From: an uncultured Candidatus Saccharibacteria bacterium
Lineage (GTDB): Bacteria > Patescibacteriota > JABMPQ01 > JAQVVF01
Length of the DNA stretch: 64,000 nucleotides
Assembly: GCA_964574655.1 (NCBI GenBank)
Contig: CAZNOH010000001.1
Location: 73,852 to 137,851 of the forward strand
Direction of reading: 5' to 3'
In this document: one piece after another, positions 7,941 through 51,507 of the stretch
How positions within the stretch are numbered: the first letter of the stretch is position 1
Layout of the letters: each line of letters begins with the position of its first letter
Notes under the pieces: model-generated
Told to the model about the DNA's origin: nothing
The model's database searches: none
Seen by the model: only the letters and a program-made list of their open reading frames with translations
Program-made: the position numbers and the translations under genes

Positions 7941-8043
7941 GCATAACGGAAGCATATATCTGATGTCCGTCGAAGCGTTAGCGTAGGCGGATATGGGTGA
8001 AGTTCACCTCGTGCGGGCATAACCAGAGATACGTTGTTGTGCG
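7941..8043. repeat. attC-like imperfect palindrome E1 (GCATAAC...GTTGTGC)
   Basis: Outer boxes fit RYYYAAC/GTTRRRY with one deviation; inner inverted repeats catatatctga/ccagagatac; abuts the stop of ORF 8047..8424. Confidence 0.45.
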
Positions 8044-8447: not shown

Positions 8448-8515
8448 GTACAACGGTCGCGAATAAAACGCAGTTGCTTTACGCAGTAAACAATTGCGGT
8501 TATTCGCTGTTGTGC
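8448..8515. repeat. attC-like imperfect palindrome E2 (GTACAAC...GTTGTGC)
   Basis: 68 bp; inner 8-bp inverted repeats gcgaataa/ttattcgc; outer boxes fit RYYYAAC/GTTRRRY with one mismatch. Confidence 0.5.
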
Positions 8516-8539: not shown

Positions 8540-9070
8540 TTATTCAATTTCAAATTTGGTTATATTTATAATTTTTTCAACTATCTGATCTTCGGAATAT
8601 GATTCCGGTAGTATAGTTTCTAATTCATGACCTGATTTATGTGCTGCAGGAAACCACTGCCTTATTTCGTCCTGACCATACTCAAAATTTGCTTCTTTTT
8701 TTTGATGCCTCTTTACTGTTTCTTCAAAACTCACATCAAAATAAAAAATATAACTTTTACCACTATGTACTGTGATCAATCTTTCGATAATTGATTGATA
8801 GGACTTTACTGAAAGAATGCCCTCTAAAATAACATTATACCCAGCTTGTAGGGCAATAGCTGTATTATGTTCAATCATTTTATGGATAACATTAGCGTTT
8901 GATTTACTTCCACCTCCAGCGGGTTTAAAAATGAATCGATAATAATCTTGGTGAATGAGTGCGGTTTTGCTTTTTGCTTTTTTAAATAAATTTTTAGCAA
9001 CAGTTGTTTTTCCTGCAGCAGATGGACCACGTAAAATTATAAATATATTTTTAGATAACTTATTATTCAT
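8540..9070 (-). CDS. P-loop NTPase/kinase (AAA_33/zeta-toxin-like fold)
   Basis: Walker A ILRGPSAAGKTT; start refined to MNNKLSK so the CDS does not overlap element E3. Confidence 0.55.
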   Translation of the reverse strand: MNNKLSKNIFIILRGPSAAGKTTVAKNLFKKAKSKTALIHQDYYRFIFKPAGGGSKSNANVIHKMIEHNTAIALQAGYNVILEGILSVKSYQSIIERLITVHSGKSYIFYFDVSFEETVKRHQKKEANFEYGQDEIRQWFPAAHKSGHELETILPESYSEDQIVEKIINITKFEIE

Positions 9071-9093
9071 ATTTTTAGCAAAGTTTTGTATGT

Positions 9094-9190
9094 TGCACAA
9101 CGTATCCGAATATCGGAAGTTGTCGAAGCGTAGCGAAGGCAATTTGCGAAAATTGCGAGCTGAGCAATTTTCCCGATATTCGGTGTTAGG
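9094..9190. repeat. attC-like imperfect palindrome E3 (GCACAAC...GTTAGGC)
   Basis: 97 bp; perfect 11-bp inner inverted repeats ccgaatatcgg/ccgatattcgg; outer boxes RYYYAAC-like and GTTRRRY (GTTAGGC). Confidence 0.55.
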
Positions 9191-9266
9191 CGAGGGTTCT
9201 TTTGCTCTACCTTAATGTAATTATATCAGATAAAAGGGCAAAAGAAAGCGCAGCGACCCCTTGAGT
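9191..9266. repeat. conserved ~80-bp cassette leader, copy 1
   Basis: Near-identical to 10009-10085 (GAGGGTTC.TTTG.CT...AAAGCG.AGCG.CCCCTTG); internal inverted repeat cttttgc/gcaaaag. Confidence 0.5.
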
Positions 9267-9286
9267 TTCGCTTTTAAGCAATAATT

Positions 9287-9874
9287 TTATTTCGTTTTTC
9301 CTGCTAATTTCATTTTCTCGTTATAATGTGCTTCAACTTCTTTTTTTATTTCAGGCCACCTCATAATCCAATTAAGCCCATCACCAGCTGATTTTATTTC
9401 CTGGCTTTCTAAAATTTCTATACGCATGCAAAATCCAGCCTTATTTTTTTCAAGATACAAAAATTGTTTTTGCTCATCTGGCAGATTAAGCAAAAATTCA
9501 TCAGAAAAGTTTGGCCATGAATATTGCCCATCGCGAATCGGACGCAACTCTGTTCCGTTTGGCGCCTGGATATATGGCCTGCTGTGTATATTAAACCTGT
9601 ATATGCCGGATTGCCAATCTGACGTGTCAACTTCAAACCATCCTGGAAAATTTTTGCTTTCTGTCAGATTAACAGCTTCAATTCCAGAAATACGATGGCC
9701 TGGTTTATTTTTTTCAGATTCTTCTTTTACTCGCTCCTGTAATACACGCTGGTCATTGTTATCTATCGGGCCATCGGGGTTTGGTCCGATCCAAAGCTGG
9801 GCCTCGCCTAAACCCAATAATTCCTTATTGAGCAAAAACAAATTTTTGTCTTGGATTTTGATGAAGTTTTCCAT
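9287..9874 (-). CDS. hypothetical protein (cassette ORF)
   Basis: 195 aa; no recognisable domain; flanked by a perfect 23-bp inverted repeat (9267-9289 and 9881-9903). Confidence 0.5.
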   Translation of the reverse strand: MENFIKIQDKNLFLLNKELLGLGEAQLWIGPNPDGPIDNNDQRVLQERVKEESEKNKPGHRISGIEAVNLTESKNFPGWFEVDTSDWQSGIYRFNIHSRPYIQAPNGTELRPIRDGQYSWPNFSDEFLLNLPDEQKQFLYLEKNKAGFCMRIEILESQEIKSAGDGLNWIMRWPEIKKEVEAHYNEKMKLAGKTK

Positions 9875-9908
9875 AGATTTAAAAATTATTGCTTAAAAGC
9901 GAAATTTC

Positions 9909-10008
9909 GCCTAACGTCTGCCGATATGCGACGTTGTTACGACCGCAGGGAGTAACAATGTAGGTGAAGGCCGAGCCGAGGCCTGAACCGCATATCGTGC
10001 TGTTAGGC
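9909..10008. repeat. attC-like imperfect palindrome E4 (GCCTAAC...GTTAGGC)
   Basis: 100 bp; textbook outer boxes RYYYAAC and GTTRRRY; perfect 9-bp inner inverted repeats cgatatgcg/cgcatatcg; further internal palindromes gttgttac/gtaacaa and ggccgagccgaggcc. Confidence 0.6.
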
Positions 10009-10085
10009 GAGGGTTCATTTTGGCTTCCTTATTATAGTTTATCAAGAAAATGCCAAAATGAAAGCGTAGCGTCCCCTTGCGTTTA
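10009..10085. repeat. conserved ~80-bp cassette leader, copy 2
   Basis: Homologous to 9191-9266; internal inverted repeat cattttggc/gccaaaatg shows compensatory changes relative to copy 1. Confidence 0.5.
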
Positions 10086-10121
10086 TTTTTTCAAATTGCT
10101 TTTCACACCAGCTTTCGCTAC

Positions 10122-10151
10122 TTGACAGTTTGCCCGCCCTCGTGGTAATGT
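10122..10151 (+). promoter_or_regulatory. sigma70-like promoter TTGACA-18-TAATGT for the GC-rich ORF
   Basis: Canonical hexamers immediately upstream of SD aaggagg and the ATG at 10214. Confidence 0.45.
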
Positions 10152-10213
10152 GCAATGTCCTTTGGACCGTGCCTCACAAGGGGCGCGAAACCGCACTTTT
10201 AAGGAGGTGCAGG

Positions 10214-10447
10214 ATGGTCAAGAACGAGACCAAGATCAAGGTGTTCGAGGTGGGGAACGGCGACGACGAGTGTGTGAAGCGAAGCCGGAGCGTGGGCGAC
10301 GTGCTCGAGGAGCGCGTCAACGCGTGGCTCAGCGGACAGAGCATCAAGGTTCTGCAGGTCGTTCAGAGCACGAACACGTCGCCCGGGATGGCGAGCTCGA
10401 CCTACTTCAGCGTCACCCTCACGATCGTCTACGAGACGACTCGCTGA
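10214..10447 (+). CDS. small GC-rich xenologous protein (77 aa), possibly dodecin-like
   Basis: About 60% GC against a ~33% background; strong SD aaggagg 6 nt upstream; beta-alpha-beta-beta pattern loosely resembling dodecin flavin-binding proteins (weak); flanked by a 13-bp inverted repeat agtttgcccgccc/gggcgggcaaact. Confidence 0.5.
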   Translation: MVKNETKIKVFEVGNGDDECVKRSRSVGDVLEERVNAWLSGQSIKVLQVVQSTNTSPGMASSTYFSVTLTIVYETTR

Positions 10448-10464
10448 CGAACATCAAACCGCGC

Positions 10465-10509
10465 GCCCGTCCGTGTCCACTGACCAAGCGTTGGTGGGCA
10501 CGGGCGGGC
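10465..10509 (+). terminator. GC-rich hairpin downstream of GC-ORF1 (gcccgtccgtgtccac...gtgggcacgggcgggc)
   Basis: 16-bp imperfect stem followed by a T-rich tract about 30 nt downstream. Confidence 0.4.
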
Positions 10510-10585
10510 AAACTTCATTCACTCTACCGAGTGCTTTTTTATTTTACAAAACTTTCACGAAAAGCAATTTGAAAAAATAAATGTC

Positions 10586-10716
10586 GCTTAACGTTAAGAA
10601 TATCTGAAGTTCATTGTAGCATAGCGGAAATGAATTTGGGTCGAGAAAATTTCTTTTTCATTAATGTAAGGAATATAAAAGTGAGAAATTTTTGAGCCAG
10701 ATATTCTTTGTTATCG
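10586..10716. repeat. attC-like imperfect palindrome E5 (GCTTAAC...GTTATCG)
   Basis: 131 bp; perfect 11-bp inner inverted repeats aagaatatctg/cagatattctt; RYYYAAC outer box; reverse strand reads ...GTTAAGC (a GTTRRRY fit). Confidence 0.5.
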
Positions 10717-10734
10717 GATGTTTTACTCACGGTT

Positions 10735-11166
10735 TTATTGGAATAATTCCCTAATTTCATCCACATAAGGTTTTAGTTCATCAAACGACAAGTCCTGTTT
10801 AGTTTTGGGATCCCTATGAAAAAGATGATATTCAGGAAGCCTACTTTTATCACCATCCGTGCGAGGCATTACGTGAAAATGGAAATGTTCGACCATCTGT
10901 CCTGCATATTGACCTTCATTGAAACCATAATTAAAACCAGTTGGCTTCAAATATTCTTCATATTTTTTAGAAACCATTTGAACTGTAGTAATGAGGTCAA
11001 TCAATTCATCTTTGGTTAGTTCGCGAATATTTGTCACATGTCGTTTTGGCACCACAATACATTGTCCTTTATTTGCAGGACGAAAATTATGAATAACACG
11101 AACATTTTCATTTTCATACAATGATTGCGCTTCGATTATTTTTGGATCACAAAACGGACAGGTCAT
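10735..11166 (-). CDS. HIT-family (histidine triad) nucleotide hydrolase
   Basis: 143 aa; HFHFHVMPR histidine-triad motif; N-terminal CPFC. Confidence 0.8.
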   Translation of the reverse strand: MTCPFCDPKIIEAQSLYENENVRVIHNFRPANKGQCIVVPKRHVTNIRELTKDELIDLITTVQMVSKKYEEYLKPTGFNYGFNEGQYAGQMVEHFHFHVMPRTDGDKSRLPEYHLFHRDPKTKQDLSFDELKPYVDEIRELFQ

Positions 11167-11198
11167 ATTTTTAAAATTAAGTGAGTGAGCAAAATTTC

Positions 11199-11385
11199 CG
11201 ATAACGTTCCCGAGTATGCGAAGCCGCGCTATTGTTTTCAGTACAAACTTACGCTTTCAGATAATACTATTTTAGCACTTCAGACACTCGATTTCAAGAA
11301 GCGCGGTTTGGGAGAGGAAAATAGCGATACCTTTGAAAATATAAAAATTATCGCTATTTTCTGAACCGCATACTCGGTGTTATCG
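11199..11385. repeat. attC-like long imperfect palindrome E6 (CGATAAC...GTTATCG)
   Basis: 187 bp; perfect 10-bp inner inverted repeats cgagtatgcg/cgcatactcg; nested inverted repeats aagccgcgc/gcgcggttt and aaatagcgata/tatcgctattt. Confidence 0.45.
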
Positions 11386-11570
11386 GATGTAAATTATTTT
11401 CATTTTTCGATTTTTTTCAACTATTCAAGGGCGAATTTTGATTCCGTTTGGCGGGGGCGCAAGAGGGGAATAAAAGGGGTGAATTGCGCCCCCGCCAATC
11501 ACTTCGTTTAAAATGAAGAAGGCCAGCGGTAATTTTCGATTGCTCGAATTTCCCGCTGGCTTAGCCCTCC

Positions 11571-12035
11571 CTATTTCTCGCAAACACCGACGAGTACGCA
11601 GTGAGGACCGCAACGATCATCGTCGGCGTATTGCTTGAGGCCGCGCGTAGGACCTCCACTGATAAAGAAGCTGCTCCTCGAACCCCCAATGAAGGCCATA
11701 TACGGGGCATCATTCAGTCCCAAATTATGGTCTTTTGCAGGGGGCAAGAGAGCTTCTGCGGGGTCGCAGAGACGCACGCCAACCTCACGAAAAGCGGCTT
11801 CCACGTCCGCACGGTAGACGATCCCGTCTGCACGCTTGAACAGCTTGCCGGAGACGATGCAGAACATCACCGTCTCGACACCCTGCCGCTCGGTCGGGAA
11901 GTTGTTGTCGGTGATGTCCCTGTCTACGCCATGGTATTGACCCTCACTGGCGAGTTGGGCGATGATGTGCGAGTTCCTGTTGAGCTGGAGCACGATCTTG
12001 TTGTCCGCGATTGCTCTTTTGAGTGTTTGCGACAT
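11571..12035 (-). CDS. GC-rich xenologous hypothetical protein (154 aa)
   Basis: About 58% GC with strong GC3 bias at the 5' end; SD aaaggagag 5 nt upstream of the ATG; two GC-rich hairpins downstream (tggcgggggcgca...tgcgcccccgcca; gccagcgg...ccgctggc); no confident family. Confidence 0.5.
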   Translation of the reverse strand: MSQTLKRAIADNKIVLQLNRNSHIIAQLASEGQYHGVDRDITDNNFPTERQGVETVMFCIVSGKLFKRADGIVYRADVEAAFREVGVRLCDPAEALLPPAKDHNLGLNDAPYMAFIGGSRSSFFISGGPTRGLKQYADDDRCGPHCVLVGVCEK

Positions 12036-12104
12036 TTTCACTCTCCTTTTGTGTTTGTCTTTCCCCGCACCCGTCGCGGAGTTAGACAATTTAATCTATC
12101 ATGT

Positions 12105-12134
12105 ATATAATACTTGTAAATACTATATGTCAGT
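12105..12134 (-). promoter_or_regulatory. candidate promoter (CTGACA-18-TTATAT) reading into the cassette array
   Basis: On the minus strand, about 70 nt upstream of the GC-ORF2 start; a Pc-like position. Confidence 0.3.
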
Positions 12135-12265
12135 AAATAATGATAAAATATGCTAAAATAAAGCAAAATAATGAGATAAATTACAAAATGTAAGTAATTA
12201 TTGACACAATTTAGCTGTTGTGATAGGATAGAAAAATCTATCTTGGATATTTAGCCACCAAACCT

Positions 12266-13051
12266 ATGGAAAACTTAATCAAAGATCTCGGACTTGATGA
12301 AAACGAGGCGAATGTATATCAAGCCCTTTTGGAACTTGGGCCGTCTACTGTTAGCCAAATAACAAGAAAAGCGGGAATTACCCGAACATTCGGCTATCAA
12401 ATTTTAGAAAAGTTAAGTGTGTATGGATTTGTCAATCGTGTATCGGGGGAGGGTGCAAAAATTCGTTTTGTAGCAGAACACCCGAGACGCTTAGTGCAGT
12501 TTATCCAAAACAGAAAAAATCAATGGGAAAGACGTCTTAAAGAAGCAGAAGACAGATTACCTGATTTAGTATCTTTGTATAAACTTGCCGATAAACCTAC
12601 TATTAAATATCTGGAAGGCATAGAAGGAGTAAAGTCAATTTTCATCCAAACACTTGAGTCAAAAGAGGAAATTTTTTCTATTTTGGACATCGAGGGTTGG
12701 GATATTCCTGAATTTCAAAGTTGGGGTAGAGAATATAACCGAGAAAGAAGTGCGCGGAAAGTAAAAGAAAGAATACTTATGTATGACACGCCACAAGGTA
12801 GGGAGTGGATGGATGACTATCGGGGTTCGTTCAAATATACAAACTGTCGTTGGATAAAGCCCGAAGATTTACCAGGAATTAGAGAATTCGGTGGCGAAAT
12901 AAATGTTTATGAAAATAAAGTTGTAATGGCCTTGCTGAAAAAGCCAAACATAATGGGGGTGGTGATTGAAAGCCAAGCATTGTCAAATATTTTAAAAGGT
13001 TTGTTTGAGTTGGCGTGGAAGCAAGGTATTGAAGTCAAAAGAAAAAAATAA
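12266..13051 (+). CDS. TrmB-family transcriptional regulator
   Basis: 261 aa; N-terminal wHTH LGLDENEANVYQALLELGPSTVSQITRKAGITRTFGYQILEKL typical of TrmB; promoter TTGACA-17-TAGGAT at about 12203. Confidence 0.65.
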   Translation: MENLIKDLGLDENEANVYQALLELGPSTVSQITRKAGITRTFGYQILEKLSVYGFVNRVSGEGAKIRFVAEHPRRLVQFIQNRKNQWERRLKEAEDRLPDLVSLYKLADKPTIKYLEGIEGVKSIFIQTLESKEEIFSILDIEGWDIPEFQSWGREYNRERSARKVKERILMYDTPQGREWMDDYRGSFKYTNCRWIKPEDLPGIREFGGEINVYENKVVMALLKKPNIMGVVIESQALSNILKGLFELAWKQGIEVKRKK

Positions 13052-13057
13052 AAAATC

Positions 13058-13083
13058 GTCCCGCCCGAGTATACGGGCGGGAC
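13058..13083 (+). terminator. GC-rich hairpin gtcccgcccg-agtata-cgggcgggac
   Basis: Perfect 10-bp stem after the trmB-like stop; no T-run, so it could be a recombination or regulatory site instead. Confidence 0.35.
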
Positions 13084-13260
13084 ATCATATTTCCCCTAAT
13101 CAAATAATTATCAAAATTCGCCCCTCAATTATCAAAAAAATCGAAAAATGAAAATAATTTATTTCCGATAACTCGTTTATATCTATAATGTTTACAAATA
13201 GTATGCTAAATTTTGTATAATTGTGCTATATTATTGTTGTAAAAAGTAATTTTTTATTTA

Positions 13261-14072
13261 TGCCTAGTTTAATAGAAATTATGAAGCGGGACATGGAAAT
13301 CCTAAATTACAGCCAAAAGACAATTGATGCTTATCAACGAAATATTGCGGAATTGTATAGATTTGTAAAAAAGCCATTGAGGAATTTAGATGAGAATTCG
13401 ATAAAGGATTTTTTGAGCCAGAAACAGAAAAAAGGTTTATCAAGTCAGTCCATTGCTTTGGCGGTGAATGCGATTAATTTTCTTTATACTCGCATATACA
13501 AGGATCCTGATTATAAAAAAATGCGACATCCTAAGCGTTCTAAACGTTTGCCAGTGGTATTGTTGAAATCAGAGATTGAAAGAATTATTGAGCAGACAAA
13601 TAATAGAAAACATAAATTAATTATTGCATTGGCGTATGCTGGTGGTTTGCGTGTTAGTGAGGTTGTCAGTCTCAAGGTTCAAGATATTGATATAGATGCT
13701 TTGACATTGATAGTTCGACAGGGGAAAGGAAAAAAGGATAGATTAACAGTGCTTTCTAAAAGAATTATATCAGATTTGAGTGAAATGATAAATGGCAAGC
13801 ATAGTTTTGATTATGTTTTTGAAAGTGAACGAGGTGGCAAGTTGACTGTAACAACAGTTCAAAAAGTATTTAGCAAATGTTTAGAAAAATCAGGGGTTAA
13901 AAAACCTGTGACTTTTCATTCTTTGCGCCATAGTTTTGCAACGCACTTGTTAGAGAATGGCACTGATATTCGCTATATTCAAGAATTGCTAGGACATCAA
14001 AATATTCGAACAACGCAAATTTATACGCAAGTAACGAATCCGAGTATTAGGAAAATTGTAAGTCCGTTTTAG
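13261..14072 (+). CDS. tyrosine site-specific recombinase (XerC/XerD/IntI-like)
   Basis: C-terminal HSLRHSFATHLL...LLGHQNIRTTQIYTQV (R-H-R-Y catalytic region); RLPVVL and GKGKKDR boxes; N-terminal SAM-like core-binding domain resembling IntI/Xer; an alternative start at 13221 is possible. Confidence 0.85.
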
Positions 14073-14133: not shown

Positions 14134-17100
14134 ATGATAGGAAAGCCATCTGAAGAAATAAAAGAGCGGTTGGATATTGTGGATTTGATTTCAGAATATA
14201 TTCAACTAACACCTGCTGGTGTTAATAATTTTAAAGCAAGGTGTCCTTTTCATAATGAAAAAACGCCGTCTCTTTTTGTATCCAAAGATAAGCAGATTTT
14301 TAAATGTTTTGGATGTTTTCCCAAGGGTGCAATCATTAGAACGGTAGAAGGCAACAAGGCAATTGATCGATTGAAAATTGGTGATTTAGTCTTGACGCAT
14401 AAAAGTCGATATAAGCCGGTAATTAAGTTATTTAAAAGAGATTATAAGGGACTTATGGTTGATGTTATAACGCGAAAATTGAATGAAGTTGTTTCTCTGA
14501 CTTCTGATCATAAAGTTTTTGTAATAAAAACAATAAATTGTAAACAAAAAAATAGAGAATCAAGGATTTGCCAACTACGATGTACGCAGAATTGTCCGAC
14601 TAAATATTTTAAGGATTATAAAATTAAAAAAATATTAGCAGGAGAATTGAAGCAGAATGATTATTTGCTTTATCCAATCGATGAAAAAGTTGTTGATATA
14701 AAAAAAATAAATTTAAAAAAATATTTGACTAAGAAAAAACCAATTCATGGCAAGGAGATTAGAAAATTGCCTGATTACTTAACTGTTAATTCTGATTTAT
14801 TAAAGTTATTAGGCTATTGGATTGCTGAGGGCAGTAGTCATCGAGCATATATCAGATTTAGTCTTGGCAATCATGAAGAAATTTTTGCTAATGATATTGT
14901 AAAATTGCTTTTTAAAGTTTTTAAATTAAAAGCAAGTATTTATCGAAGAAAAAATACTGAAAAAACAGGCTTAGAGATAACTTGTTGCAATTCTAATTTG
15001 GCGAATATTTTTGAAAATTTGTGTGGAAAGGGTGCTTTGAATAAACATATACCATTTGAATTTGTGAATTTACTTGCTAGAAAACAAAGAATTTTGTTAG
15101 AGGCGATTCATCGAGGGGATGGTTATCAAGGGTTTGTGAATGATAGTAAAAGAAAATATAGAGCAATTACGGTAATTTCTAGAACTTTGACAGATCAGAT
15201 GAAAGAGATTTTGTTGCGTTTAAATTTAATGCCAACTTTGTTTATTGCTGATGAAAAAGTTGACAAGAAAGGGGTTCGTCATAAAAAATCTTACACTCTA
15301 AGCTGGCAGGAAAATATTTTAGGGCATTATGCTGATTTTTATAGATTTGATAAAATTAAATATTGGATTTTGCCAATAAGAAAAATTGTGAAAAGAAAAT
15401 TTTCTGGAACTGTTTATAATTTGATGGTAAAAGATGATCATTCTTATACAACAACAAATTTTACAGTTGGTAATTGTGGAGAGGGCGGCGATGTTTTTTC
15501 TTTTGTGATGAAAATGGAAGGATTGGAATTTGTTGATGCATTAAGAATTTTGGCGGTTAAAGCTGGCGTGGAATTGAAACGCGAACAGCCAGAATTTTAT
15601 TCTAAGCGAGCAAGAGTTTTAGAAATTTTAAAATTATCAGCGGAATATTATAATTTAGCATTATTAAAAAGTAAAAGCGGACAAATTGCTAGGGATTATA
15701 TTGCGACAAGGAAATTAAAATCAGAAACTGTTAGTCAATTTAAATTAGGATTTTCACCTGATGATTGGGAAATGCTGTCTAGGTTTTTAAAGTCTCGTGG
15801 ATTCAGAGATGATGAAATTTTAGCAAGTGGAATGGTTGTGCCAAAAGATTATGGCAGATATTATGATCGATTTAGATTTAGATTAATGTTTCCGATTTGG
15901 GATGGACAGAATAATGTGGTTGGATTTACGGCCAGACAATTGAGAGAAGAAAAAAATATGGGCAAGTATATTAATACTTCGCAAAGCTTGGTTTATGATA
16001 AGAGCCGAGTGATTTATGGATTGAATTTTGCTAAGTCAGATATAAGAAGAGAGGATAGGGTGGTAATAGTTGAGGGCAATATGGATGTGATTGCATCGCA
16101 TCAGGCAGGAGTTAAAAATGTTGTGGCATCTTCTGGGACGGCTTTGACTTCAATGCAAATTGATTTGATAAAAAGGTATACAAATAATGTTGTTTTTTCT
16201 TTTGATATGGATTTGGCTGGAAATATGGCAACACAGAGAGGAATTGATTTGGCATTGGAATCAGGATTGAATATTAAAGTGGCAGTACCTAAAAAAAACA
16301 ATGACGTGAAAGATCCTGATGATATTATAAAAACAGAAGGCGTTAAGGCATGGAAAGATGTAATTAATTCGGCAAAATCAATTATGGATTATTATTTTGA
16401 AAGCAATGCAGAAAAATTAAATTTAACTGAAGTTTTAGATAAAAAAATAATGGCAAAGTTTTTATTGCCAAAGATTAAAAAAATTCCGGACAAGGTTGAG
16501 CAGGCGCATTATTTGCAAAAATTGGCAGGATTGCTTTTGGTTGGTGAGGATATTTTGCGAGAAGCAATGGGAAAAACACGAGTTTTACATGGCTATGGAA
16601 GATCGGCAAGTGCAAAAGCATCCGCCTTCGCTCCAACTGTGGTTGGAGCTTCCACCTACGCAAATGCTTCGGCGGACAAGCCGGTGGACAAAGAAAGCGA
16701 AACTGAATTGTTGCAGGAGCGTCTTTTTGGCTTGATAATGTCTGATTTTGAGAACTTTAAAAAGCTAGAAAGCTTTGATTTAGGGTTATTTAATGATCAA
16801 ATAAGTTCACTTTACAAAAGAATAAAAGAATATTATAATGATAACAAATCATTTGAGTTCAACGTCTTTAGTTCTGAATTAGAAAAGGATTCAGTTGTTT
16901 TGTCTTTATTTGCCAAGGAGCTAGTTTTGGGGATTGAAAAGGAGCAAAGTCAGCGAGAGAAAGGTGAAATTTTTGAAATCAAAAAAGAGGTAGATAGATG
17001 CCTGAACAGATTGACAGAAAATGATTTAAAGAAAAGATTAATGGATATTGAGGCGCAAATGCGCAATGCAGAGGTCAGCAAAAATGTAGAGAAGGTTACT

Positions 17101-17163
17101 GATTTGAGCAAGCAGTTTAATGTTTTGTCACAAAAGTTAGATAAAGTTAACGAGATTATCTAA
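14134..17163 (+). CDS. dnaG: DNA primase DnaG interrupted by an intein
   Basis: CPFHNEKTPSLF...FKCFG | intein | CGEGGDVFSFVM reconstitutes the zinc-binding CHC2 motif; TOPRIM VVIVEGNMDVIASHQAG; 1009 aa including a 387-aa intein. Confidence 0.9.
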   Translation: MIGKPSEEIKERLDIVDLISEYIQLTPAGVNNFKARCPFHNEKTPSLFVSKDKQIFKCFGCFPKGAIIRTVEGNKAIDRLKIGDLVLTHKSRYKPVIKLFKRDYKGLMVDVITRKLNEVVSLTSDHKVFVIKTINCKQKNRESRICQLRCTQNCPTKYFKDYKIKKILAGELKQNDYLLYPIDEKVVDIKKINLKKYLTKKKPIHGKEIRKLPDYLTVNSDLLKLLGYWIAEGSSHRAYIRFSLGNHEEIFANDIVKLLFKVFKLKASIYRRKNTEKTGLEITCCNSNLANIFENLCGKGALNKHIPFEFVNLLARKQRILLEAIHRGDGYQGFVNDSKRKYRAITVISRTLTDQMKEILLRLNLMPTLFIADEKVDKKGVRHKKSYTLSWQENILGHYADFYRFDKIKYWILPIRKIVKRKFSGTVYNLMVKDDHSYTTTNFTVGNCGEGGDVFSFVMKMEGLEFVDALRILAVKAGVELKREQPEFYSKRARVLEILKLSAEYYNLALLKSKSGQIARDYIATRKLKSETVSQFKLGFSPDDWEMLSRFLKSRGFRDDEILASGMVVPKDYGRYYDRFRFRLMFPIWDGQNNVVGFTARQLREEKNMGKYINTSQSLVYDKSRVIYGLNFAKSDIRREDRVVIVEGNMDVIASHQAGVKNVVASSGTALTSMQIDLIKRYTNNVVFSFDMDLAGNMATQRGIDLALESGLNIKVAVPKKNNDVKDPDDIIKTEGVKAWKDVINSAKSIMDYYFESNAEKLNLTEVLDKKIMAKFLLPKIKKIPDKVEQAHYLQKLAGLLLVGEDILREAMGKTRVLHGYGRSASAKASAFAPTVVGASTYANASADKPVDKESETELLQERLFGLIMSDFENFKKLESFDLGLFNDQISSLYKRIKEYYNDNKSFEFNVFSSELEKDSVVLSLFAKELVLGIEKEQSQREKGEIFEIKKEVDRCLNRLTENDLKKRLMDIEAQMRNAEVSKNVEKVTDLSKQFNVLSQKLDKVNEII
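14314..15474 (+). mobile_element. intein with LAGLIDADG homing endonuclease inside dnaG
   Basis: Starts with Cys (CFPKGAIIRT); block B TSDHKV; two LAGLIDADG motifs (LLGYWIAEGSS and LLEAIHRGDGYQG); ends ...NFTVGN followed by the Cys+1 of the extein. Confidence 0.8.
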
Positions 17164-18459: not shown

Positions 18460-18575
18460 TTGTTTGTGATATCTTTTTTAGAATAACAAAATAACTAAAT
18501 AACATAATAACAAAAGTGAATTATAAATTAGAAATTTTGTTATTTATAATTTAGTCATTTAGTTATTAATAATGT

Positions 18576-18647
18576 TCCCAGGTAGCGCAGTGGTAGCGCA
18601 GGAGACTGTTAATCTCTTGGTCGCGAGTTCGAATCTCGCCCTGGGAG
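18576..18647 (+). tRNA. tRNA-Asn (anticodon GUU)
   Basis: Cloverleaf resolved by hand: acceptor tcccagg/cctggga, D-stem gcgc/gcgc, anticodon stem ggaga/tctct with loop cuGUUaa, T-arm gcgag-ttcgaat-ctcgc; CCA not encoded. Confidence 0.8.
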
Positions 18648-18654
18648 TTCAAAA

Positions 18655-50961: not shown

Positions 50962-51108
50962 TAATAAAAATTTTTTTCGATAATAGCTAATAATCAATAA
51001 CCAATAATCAATTAATAACCAATTATCAATAATCAAAAGTTTTGAAATTTGGTTATTGAGTATTGGATATTGTTTGGTGATTGGATATTGGTTATTATGT
51101 TTAATTAA

Positions 51109-51507
51109 TGGAGGTGGCGAGAATTGCACTCGCGTGTAAAAAGTTTGCTTAAAAAACTTTTACAAGTTTATTTAGTTTTGGTTGTCTCGAATAATAAACT
51201 TAAAACCAAAAAAATATTTATTACTCAAAGCCATTAAAGTTTTCAATAATCTCTAAGGCGAGAGATTATCTACATTCGTACGATGACACCCAAATTCCCA
51301 CACACGAATCTAGCGGGATGGATGGTAATCGGGTATTAAGCGATTACAGTTGAAGGTTGAAATGAAAAAGATTGAGCAAAAGCTTTTACTTTTTCAGAGA
51401 CCTTTGTTAATAAGTTTGCACTTATAAAATGCAAGAAGTTTTGAGAGTATCTTGCGACTCTACATGAATTTTTTAAACTGCGCTCTTTAGCGAAGCTTTT
51501 CACCCCC
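51109..51507 (-). ncRNA. ssrA: candidate tmRNA (ssrA)
   Basis: Minus-strand 5' GGGGGUG pairs with 3' CACCUCC-A to form a 7-bp acceptor stem with a G3:U70 wobble (alanine identity) and an A discriminator; T-arm-like GCGAG-UGCAAUU-CUCGC just 5' of the 3' acceptor strand; about 400 nt; adjacent to smpB. The tag ORF is not confidently resolved. Confidence 0.5.

Follow-up and report, generated by a model that had tools for sequence, protein, structure and literature searches.

An orphan C-type-lectin gene of a diversity-generating retroelement target family as probable cargo of a mobile cassette in a CPR bacterium

Introduction

Does a gene that is far richer in GC than the genome around it betray a foreign donor? 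This question is raised by a 154-amino-acid (aa) open reading frame (ORF) on a 64-kb stretch of contig CAZNOH010000001.1, from a Candidate Phyla Radiation (CPR) bacterium. We call the whole stretch, which has a mean GC of 33.4%, the window, and coordinates are window positions unless another contig is named (Table 1). An earlier annotation made from the letters alone (the sequence-only reading) had taken the ORF for a GC-rich cassette of unknown protein family, captured from a high-GC source. We propose a different explanation, to which we assign a probability of about 0.68: the gene is an orphan member of a family of C-type-lectin (CLec) fold variable proteins of diversity-generating retroelements (DGRs), with a fixed variable repeat (VR), and serves as the exchangeable cargo of a TrmB-like regulator frame inside a mobile cassette, its high GC being a property of the family.

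Results

The GC-rich ORF and its coding status

Intervals of 671 nt exceed 50% GC at only two places in the window, with starts at about 9750-10000 and about 11250-11550, and the latter is the region of the 154-aa gene. The minus-strand ORF described by the sequence-only reading is present at 11571..12035, and so is its Shine-Dalgarno (SD) sequence aaaggagag (12041-12049), spaced 5 nt from the ATG. A GC of about 58% had been ascribed to 11420-12090; this value holds for the core at 11601-12000 (57.8%) and not for the full span (54.5%), with the ORF itself at 56.3%. GC at the first, second and third codon positions is 0.60, 0.41 and 0.68, against a median third-position value (GC3) of 0.26 (sd 0.087) among 48 long ORFs of the window. 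As had been claimed, the bias is strongest at the 5' end (GC3 of 0.78, 0.69 and 0.57 in successive thirds, 5' to 3').

Comparison with the homologs on contigs L004 and L005 (71-80% amino-acid identity) gave 50 substitutions at third codon positions and 18-32 at the first two, with a ratio of non-synonymous to synonymous rates (dN/dS) of 0.20-0.24. This third-position excess and this ratio argue that the ORF is coding, and by the same measures it is evidently a genuine gene under purifying selection. The 169-aa ORF on the plus strand, already judged antisense, is broken by a stop in L004, and its first codon positions are the fast-evolving third positions of the minus-strand ORF; it is a shadow ORF. 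The identical arrangement recurs in independent assemblies (L007, 100% over 4139 bp; L001, L002 and L003), and is therefore not an assembly chimera.

GC-rich islands of AT-rich genomes are often RNA genes, and chance ORFs arise in GC-rich DNA, here with 154 and 169 codons on opposite strands. A spurious ORF on a structured non-coding RNA or DNA element would fit both points. However, the Rfam search of 9000-12400 yielded neither a credible RNA family nor a match above noise, the substitutions are codon-periodic at a dN/dS of 0.2, the antisense ORF is broken in L004, and the protein has a 43-member family and a confident structural model, described below. We regard this explanation as barely credible.

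Protein family and predicted fold

The 154-aa protein has no family in Pfam, NCBIfam, PHROGs or PADLOC, and a profile search of PDB sequences with it gave no match. A word-indexed search returned four close homologs only, one of them in a Magasanikbacteria metagenome-assembled genome. An exhaustive HMMER search with a four-sequence profile recovered 43 cluster representatives of 150-230 aa, which include P0005 (E 7e-35) and P0007 (E 1e-24) and have in common the pattern AEALLPPA..LGRG..VAF..GS..F.V...R.L....W....F.GVCE. Named genomes with family members were Magasanikbacteria only, in a scan of a genome collection with two peptide patterns.

The AlphaFold2 (AF2) model of the protein reached a predicted local distance difference test (pLDDT) score of 95 with a 44-sequence alignment, and of 32 with four sequences. 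CLec-fold proteins alone headed the lists in fold searches; Foldseek gave nothing significant against PDB or against viral models, with CLec folds dominating the top ranks. The model predicts a small CLec-fold binding protein without a signal peptide, and the label of unknown family gives way to membership in a DGR variable-protein family. The sequence-only reading had proposed looking for toxin or ADP-ribosyltransferase (ART)-like folds, and a toxin or ART-like effector of a toxin-antitoxin or defence cassette would suit the surroundings: the array also holds Zeta-toxin-like kinase and HIT genes, and a Fic gene follows the homolog in L004. Such an effector is nevertheless very improbable, given that none of the four family libraries returned an ART, toxin or defence family and that the top of the fold searches held CLec-fold proteins only.

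DGR-linked relatives and the fixed window copy

CLec is the usual fold of DGR targets (PMC5758913), and the cell-encoded DGRs restricted to CPR form clade 2 (Roux et al. 2021, PMC8144416). We observed that relatives of the 154-aa protein belong to DGRs. In the Magasanikbacteria genome CG1_02_41_34 (L009), the final 116 nt of the homolog recur 575 nt downstream as a template repeat (TR), all 19 of the 19 mismatches between TR and VR fall at TR adenines, and genes for bAvd and an RVT_1 reverse transcriptase (RT) then follow; the same species in another sample (L014) has a VR that differs from that of L009. On a 1.03-Mb CPR contig (L016), 11 of 12 TR/VR mismatches fall at TR adenines and bAvd and RVT_1 adjoin, and the contig of P0005, the best remote match, has the gene order target, bAvd, RVT_1. 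From these arrangements, the nearest relatives of the protein are evidently bona fide DGR variable proteins. The complete DGRs (target, TR, bAvd and RT) occupy 5850-8432 in L009 and 6001-8502 in L016.

For the window copy, a tblastn search of the 64 kb (two RT and two Avd queries) nowhere rose above noise, and L001 (13 kb of contig), L004 and L021 gave no match either. A relaxed BLAST search for a TR did not reveal the gene's 3' part a second time, whether in the window or in related contigs. The VRs of L009 and L016 align with residues 117-154. This stretch is conserved best within the subfamily and is near-invariant across the window protein, P0001, P0002 and P0003. Its dN/dS is 0.13-0.20, against 0.23-0.26 in residues 1-116, and hypervariability of this VR equivalent was absent among the close relatives. 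As no RT, Avd or TR was found in the window and the VR equivalent is the most constrained part of the protein, we read the window copy as an orphan DGR target with a fixed sequence. It shares the CLec fold with the DGR variable proteins Mtd of Bordetella phage BPP-1 (PDB 1yu0) and TvpA of Treponema denticola (PDB 2y3c), and it is homologous to proteins with demonstrated VR/TR pairs. It differs from DGR targets in having no RT, Avd or TR within 64 kb, in a VR equivalent under purifying selection, in its length of only 154 aa, without the N-terminal extension of about 40 residues seen in DGR-linked members, and in its pairing with a TrmB-like regulator.

Could the gene still be an active target, served by an RT and a template repeat elsewhere in the genome? 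Its nearest relatives are active targets, and DGRs can have remote targets. The gene also has, like DGR targets, a GC-rich hairpin 10 nt past its stop codon (Guo et al. 2011, PMC3240598), and DGRs with more than one target gene have been described (Wu et al. 2018, PMC5758913). However, the hairpin of DGR targets is a GC-rich stem of 7-10 bp with a 4-nt GRNA loop, which follows the VR at a distance of 4-34 bp (Guo et al. 2011, PMC3240598), whereas the one in the window has a loop of 23 nt. The near-invariance of the VR equivalent and the RT, Avd and TR searches of the window and of 13 kb of the L001 contig likewise speak against diversification. Between the window and L001, residues 1-116 carry 13.5 non-synonymous and 2.5 synonymous changes, and the differences cluster in residues 3-33, with a concentration at 11930-11990 (residues about 16-35), outside the VR equivalent. 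We hold an active target to be quite improbable. The cluster of changes, beside which the TrmB gene is 99% identical between window and L001, could represent local positive selection or a recombination patch.

Origin of the high GC

The claim that the gene is xenologous, from a high-GC donor, was not borne out. The genomic contexts that were read belong to fewer than half of the 43 family representatives. The family gene is a GC island in 6 of 7 independent AT-rich contexts with background GC of 33-49% (Table 2), and among the contexts read, all of them CPR or metagenomic contigs, none is high in GC. The genes next to the L009 and L016 members stand at host GC (RT 41%, Avd 43-47%). Four close homologs, about 0.6-0.75 apart in synonymous divergence (dS), have GC3 of 0.67-0.73, all beside an AT-rich TrmB gene. 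With GC islands in 6/7 contexts and RT and Avd at host GC, the composition argues for a family trait and offers no evidence of a donor; we read the high GC as such a trait, not as the signature of a recent high-GC donor. The sequence-only reading had stated that a conserved core gene of the lineage with locally high GC would speak against it, and the gene comes close to that description, being lineage-associated and a GC island in 6/7 contexts.

A recent, independent acquisition, in which a gene of a high-GC organism was taken up as an integron cassette, would account for a GC3 of 0.68 where the window median is 0.26, and it draws on the exchangeable segment and mobile cassette described below. 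The other cargo ORFs of the frame and a nearby 77-aa ORF are GC-rich orphans too, so that a common pool of GC-rich mobile genes is conceivable. We nevertheless judge such an acquisition unlikely: all seven contexts lie at 33-49% GC with RT and Avd at host GC, lineages at a dS of about 0.7 retain GC3 of 0.67-0.73 beside the AT-rich TrmB gene that they share, we found no relatives in viruses, and the named carrier genomes are only Magasanikbacteria. Two further accounts of the family-wide GC were tried and rejected. Amelioration, with GC declining after loss of the DGR, conflicts with the GC3 of 0.88 in L010, which has no RT within 8.8 kb; adenine avoidance conflicts with an equal depletion of T and A and with a scaffold part that is the most GC-rich.

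The other GC island of the window (10121-10520) holds the 77-aa ORF, at 10214..10447 on the plus strand, with a GC3 of 0.91. This ORF has its own promoter, TTGACA-17-TAATGT, runs antisense to the array and in the orientation opposite to the CLec gene, and has three homologs only among 5.8 billion proteins and no family. A donor shared by the two genes, for which a comparison of codon usage had been suggested, is not favoured by GC3 (0.91 against 0.68) or by codon choice (CGT, GGT and GCA in the CLec gene, almost only G- or C-ending codons in the 77-aa ORF), with 77 codons too few to decide on a shared origin.

An exchangeable segment in a conserved frame

Contig L021 aligns to the window at 12057-13171 (77% identity) and at 11203-11560 (87%), and its TrmB protein is 80% identical. 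The 496 bp between these blocks (11561-12056: the SD, the ORF and 10 nt), which we call the cargo segment, are replaced in L021 by 1224 bp with two unrelated ORFs (GC 55% and 61%, GC3 0.68 and 0.71). The slot partner in L024 is a GC-rich 244-aa protein with a zf-HC2 domain. In contig coordinates, these unrelated GC-rich ORFs (GC3 0.68-0.72) lie at 3588-4752 in L021 and 4049-4783 in L024.

The regulator of the frame matches Pfam PF01978 with 56.4 bits (cutoff 25.6). At E <= 1e-5 there are 192 homologs. Identity is at least 55% in all of the 120 listed, and those with names among these 120 come from Magasanik-, Falkow-, Buchanan- and Moranbacteria. It is paired with the CLec gene in L001, L004, L005 and L007, that is, in every close contig reaching upstream. 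Like TrmB regulators, it has an N-terminal winged-helix domain and diverges from its presumed target gene. Unlike them, it has no detected sugar-binding C-terminal domain, scores only 27-29 bits against NCBIfam equivalogs with cutoffs of 600-650 (NF040851, 26.9 against 600; NF047390, 28.9 against 650), and has a partner gene that differs between genomes.

The promoter region between the two genes contains two conserved TTGTAA(A/G)TA motifs, and TTGACACAAT is kept in 6/6 aligned loci. The candidate cargo promoter falls in a conserved block of the intergenic alignment and may function as such. The leader hairpin is kept in L004, L005 and L021, the last of which has unrelated cargo, and its pairing survives substitutions.

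Two GC-rich hairpins had been reported downstream of the gene; both are present, each better than 200 of 200 shuffles. Hairpin 2 is an 8-bp GC-rich stem (arms 11522-11529 and 11553-11560) 10 nt past the stop codon, whose 23-nt loop holds an inner 5-bp stem with a GCAA tetraloop (z = -3.6, 0/200 shuffles as stable). Across six sequences, five of them distinct, 95.7% of cells are paired, with 3 compensatory pairs and a covariation score that 0/500 shuffles attain. CUUCUUCAUUUU directly follows, and this two-tier stem with CUUCUUCAUUUU could terminate transcription; a consensus scan for intrinsic terminators, which combine a short GC-rich stem and a loop of 3-8 nt with a T-run, listed neither hairpin. 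The core arms of hairpin 1 (11449-11461 and 11485-11497) extend to 15 bp. Stem and loop are identical in L021 despite the 77% identity of the TrmB segment, and this identity suggests a sequence-specific function, possibly protein binding or that of an RNA element.

Hairpin 1 is also found after the Fic gene in L004. On that contig (1815-2870 and 3417-4274), hairpins 2 and 1 are separated by an inserted Fic gene whose C-terminal part is a helix-turn-helix, and an insertion sequence with a DDE_Tnp_1 transposase follows. We found no viral contig with hairpin 1 and none with a relative of the 154-aa protein, and a viral origin was rejected on both counts.

The slot could also be seen as more than a site of exchange. 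In a bolder reading, the frame would be a dedicated CPR platform for gene capture and expression, where GC-rich ORFs are swapped precisely between leader and post-stop hairpin by an as yet undescribed site-specific or retroelement-related mechanism akin to DGR hairpin recognition, the persistent GC-richness of the cargo, DGR targets included, being a by-product or a requirement. We consider this platform distinctly unlikely, and retain the explanation of an orphan CLec gene as one of several cargoes of the frame.

The cassette and its integron-like array

Frame and cargo together form a cassette of 1.98 kb (11193-13172) bounded by GTTATCG core sites. It is the first cassette of its array, beside the recombinase. 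Over 11193-13172, L001 is 95% identical to the window, with about 98-99% inside the inverted repeats, and identity collapses exactly at both cores, at the 11193 end and beyond 13172, with unrelated flanks. In L001, recombinase and cassette are separated by a 161-aa ORF, whose own attC-like site ends in GTTATCG, and a different cassette follows the shared one, as would be expected if these units behave like integron cassettes. As the shared block ends at the cores and the neighbouring recombinases of window and L001 are only 44% identical, we regard the block as a mobile cassette of an integron-like array. The earlier idea of cassette capture is upheld in so far as a mobile unit lies in an attC-like array with a tyrosine recombinase and its GC-rich segment is exchangeable. 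The unit is not the 154-aa gene alone but a two-gene cassette of 1.98 kb, including the AT-rich TrmB-like regulator that is widespread in CPR.

Throughout 7.9-13.2 kb, an imperfect palindrome comes after every gene, with cores that resemble RYYYAAC...GTTRRRY. The six attC-like sites (A-F) fold as long hairpins, and 13166-13172 holds a seventh core; each core is complementary to the next, without a mismatch at 4/6 junctions and with one at 2/6. Other cassettes of the array have inverted repeats of 23-25 nt, and L004 has its own 20-nt pair. Two home-made attC scanners missed known sites and were not used as evidence. A 59-aa ORF at 11185..11364, inside site F, is probably not a gene. We rejected a split attC site as the nature of the 64-nt inverted repeat, the core order being wrong (GTTATCG 5', CGATAAC 3', on either strand), and an invertible segment, the orientation being the same in 4/4 independent copies.

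The adjacent recombinase has the Pfam domains Phage_integrase and Phage_int_SAM_4. The family that fits it best is NF040815 (XerA / 'integron integrase'), with a score of 234.6 (cutoff 220). The protein stays below the integron-integrase cutoffs of TIGR02249 (208.7, in two stretches, against 265) and PRK15417 (145.9 against 435). The array resembles integron arrays in its palindromes and their cores, in the divergent, adjacent tyrosine recombinase, in the complementarity of each cassette's first bases to its far-end core, and in the presence of the same cassette at different positions in two arrays. It differs from integrons in the short recombinase (270 aa), which lacks the IntI-specific insertion and falls below the integrase cutoff, in an end complementarity of 23-64 nt rather than 7 nt, in a cassette of two genes with their own promoters, and in its CPR host. 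The cassette is not a single promoterless ORF: two divergent genes have promoter-like sites between them. In the literature searched, judged on titles and abstracts, we found no paper describing integrons in CPR bacteria.

Other features of the window

At 14134-17163, the zinc-ribbon of a DnaG primase is split by an intein that contains a LAGLIDADG endonuclease (Pfam Hint_2, Intein_splicing, LAGLIDADG_3). At the gathering threshold, Rfam found in the window only a tmRNA (51106-51507, minus strand) and a tRNA-Asn (18575-18648).

Table 1. Positions of the cassette, its parts and the neighbouring array in the window
Feature	Position	Strand	Remarks
attC-like site A	left core 7941-7947, right core 8036-8042		
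attC-like site B	left core 8448-8454, right core 8509-8515		
attC-like site C	left core 9095-9101, right core 9185-9191		
attC-like site D	left core 9909-9915, right core 10002-10008		
attC-like site E	left core 10586-10592, right core 10710-10716		
attC-like site F (CGATAAC...GTTATCG)	11199..11385		cores 11199-11205 and 11379-11385; long imperfect hairpin; closes cassette
Inverted-repeat left arm, 64 nt	11379..11442		outer end is core GTTATCG; pairs I1, I5; also in L001 and L021
Hairpin 1	11448..11498	-	perfect 15-bp GC-rich stem, 21-nt C/U-rich loop; z = -4.8, 0/200 shuffles
Hairpin 2	11521..11561	-	two-tier stem-loop GCCAGCGG / CCGCTGGC around TTCGA-GCAA-TCGAA; downstream edge of cargo slot
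154-aa protein gene	11571..12035	-	predicted CLec fold; DGR variable-protein family of Magasanikbacteria/CPR
DGR variable-repeat equivalent, residues 117-154	11574..11687	-	GGSRSSFFISGGPTRGLKQYADDDRCGPHCVLVGVCEK; aligns to L009 and L016 VR; fixed here
SD site aaaggagag and spacer	12036..12056	-	upstream end of cargo; L021 homology stops at 12057, resumes at 11560
5' leader hairpin	12055..12089	-	UGUCU..CUCCGCG-ACGGG-UGCGGGG..AGACA; fold z = -4.2
Candidate cargo promoter	12093..12120	-	TTTACA-16-TAGATT, TG before; consensus scan; overlaps conserved TTGTAAATA motif
Candidate promoter of TrmB-like gene	12201..12229	+	TTGACA-17-TAGGAT with TG; second TTGTAAGTA motif before it
TrmB-family winged-helix regulator, 261 aa	12266..13051	+	divergent from cargo; AT-rich (37-38% GC)
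GC-rich hairpin after TrmB-like gene	13058..13083		bidirectional, terminator-like; terminator scan on both strands
Inverted-repeat right arm, 64-nt repeat	13110..13172		outer core CGATAAC (13166-13172), the recombinase-side cassette boundary
Tyrosine recombinase, 270 aa from ATG	13260..14072	+	XerA / integron-integrase-like; 90 bp past last core; divergent from cassettes

Table 2. Composition of the family gene and of its surroundings in seven contexts
Context	Gene GC	Gene GC3	Background GC
Window	56%	0.68	33%
L009	65.5%	0.88	43%
L010	67%	0.88	42-47%
L015	61%	0.83	39% (flank)
L016	67%	0.90	44%
L017	67%	0.88	49%
L018	50%	0.50	48%

Discussion

Several points weigh against the explanation that we prefer. 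L010, with no RT within 8.8 kb, is GC-rich and L018 is not, which blurs any link between GC and DGR status. A genome-collection scan by short peptide patterns may miss relatives in high-GC taxa. The close subfamily consists of about five sequences, so the selection and covariation statistics come from few lineages. The negative RT and TR results cover 64 kb, and a distant RT and TR may exist. The recombinase has no room for the IntI-specific domain and does not reach the integron-integrase cutoff, each of the two genes in the cassette has its own promoter, and inverted repeats of 64 nt stand at the cassette ends; with these properties, this is not a canonical integron. Finally, the ligand, the cellular location and the regulation by the TrmB-like protein are all things that we infer.

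With these points in mind, we propose the following working for the orphan CLec gene and its cassette. The protein would most likely bind one fixed ligand, using the surface that is hypermutated in its relatives. The TrmB-like protein would probably bind the TTGTAA(A/G)TA motifs and thereby control the cargo promoter, and the cargo transcript would end at hairpin 2. The cassette as a whole would move by tyrosine-recombinase action at the cores, and the cargo would be swapped through recombination in the conserved flanks or in some other way.

A GC island in an AT-rich genome, as found here, need not imply a foreign high-GC donor, and a GC-rich target beside an RT and Avd that are not GC-rich is a testable regularity of this family. 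In this locus, a DGR target seems to have parted from its retroelement and joined a conserved regulator, with its binding surface kept fixed, and such an orphan suggests that binding proteins of the hypermutated kind can be recruited to a fixed role. For gene flux in ultra-small bacteria, our findings point to Magasanikbacteria with integron-like arrays and a short XerA-like recombinase, and with a recurrent frame of regulator and slot whose cargo is exchangeable.

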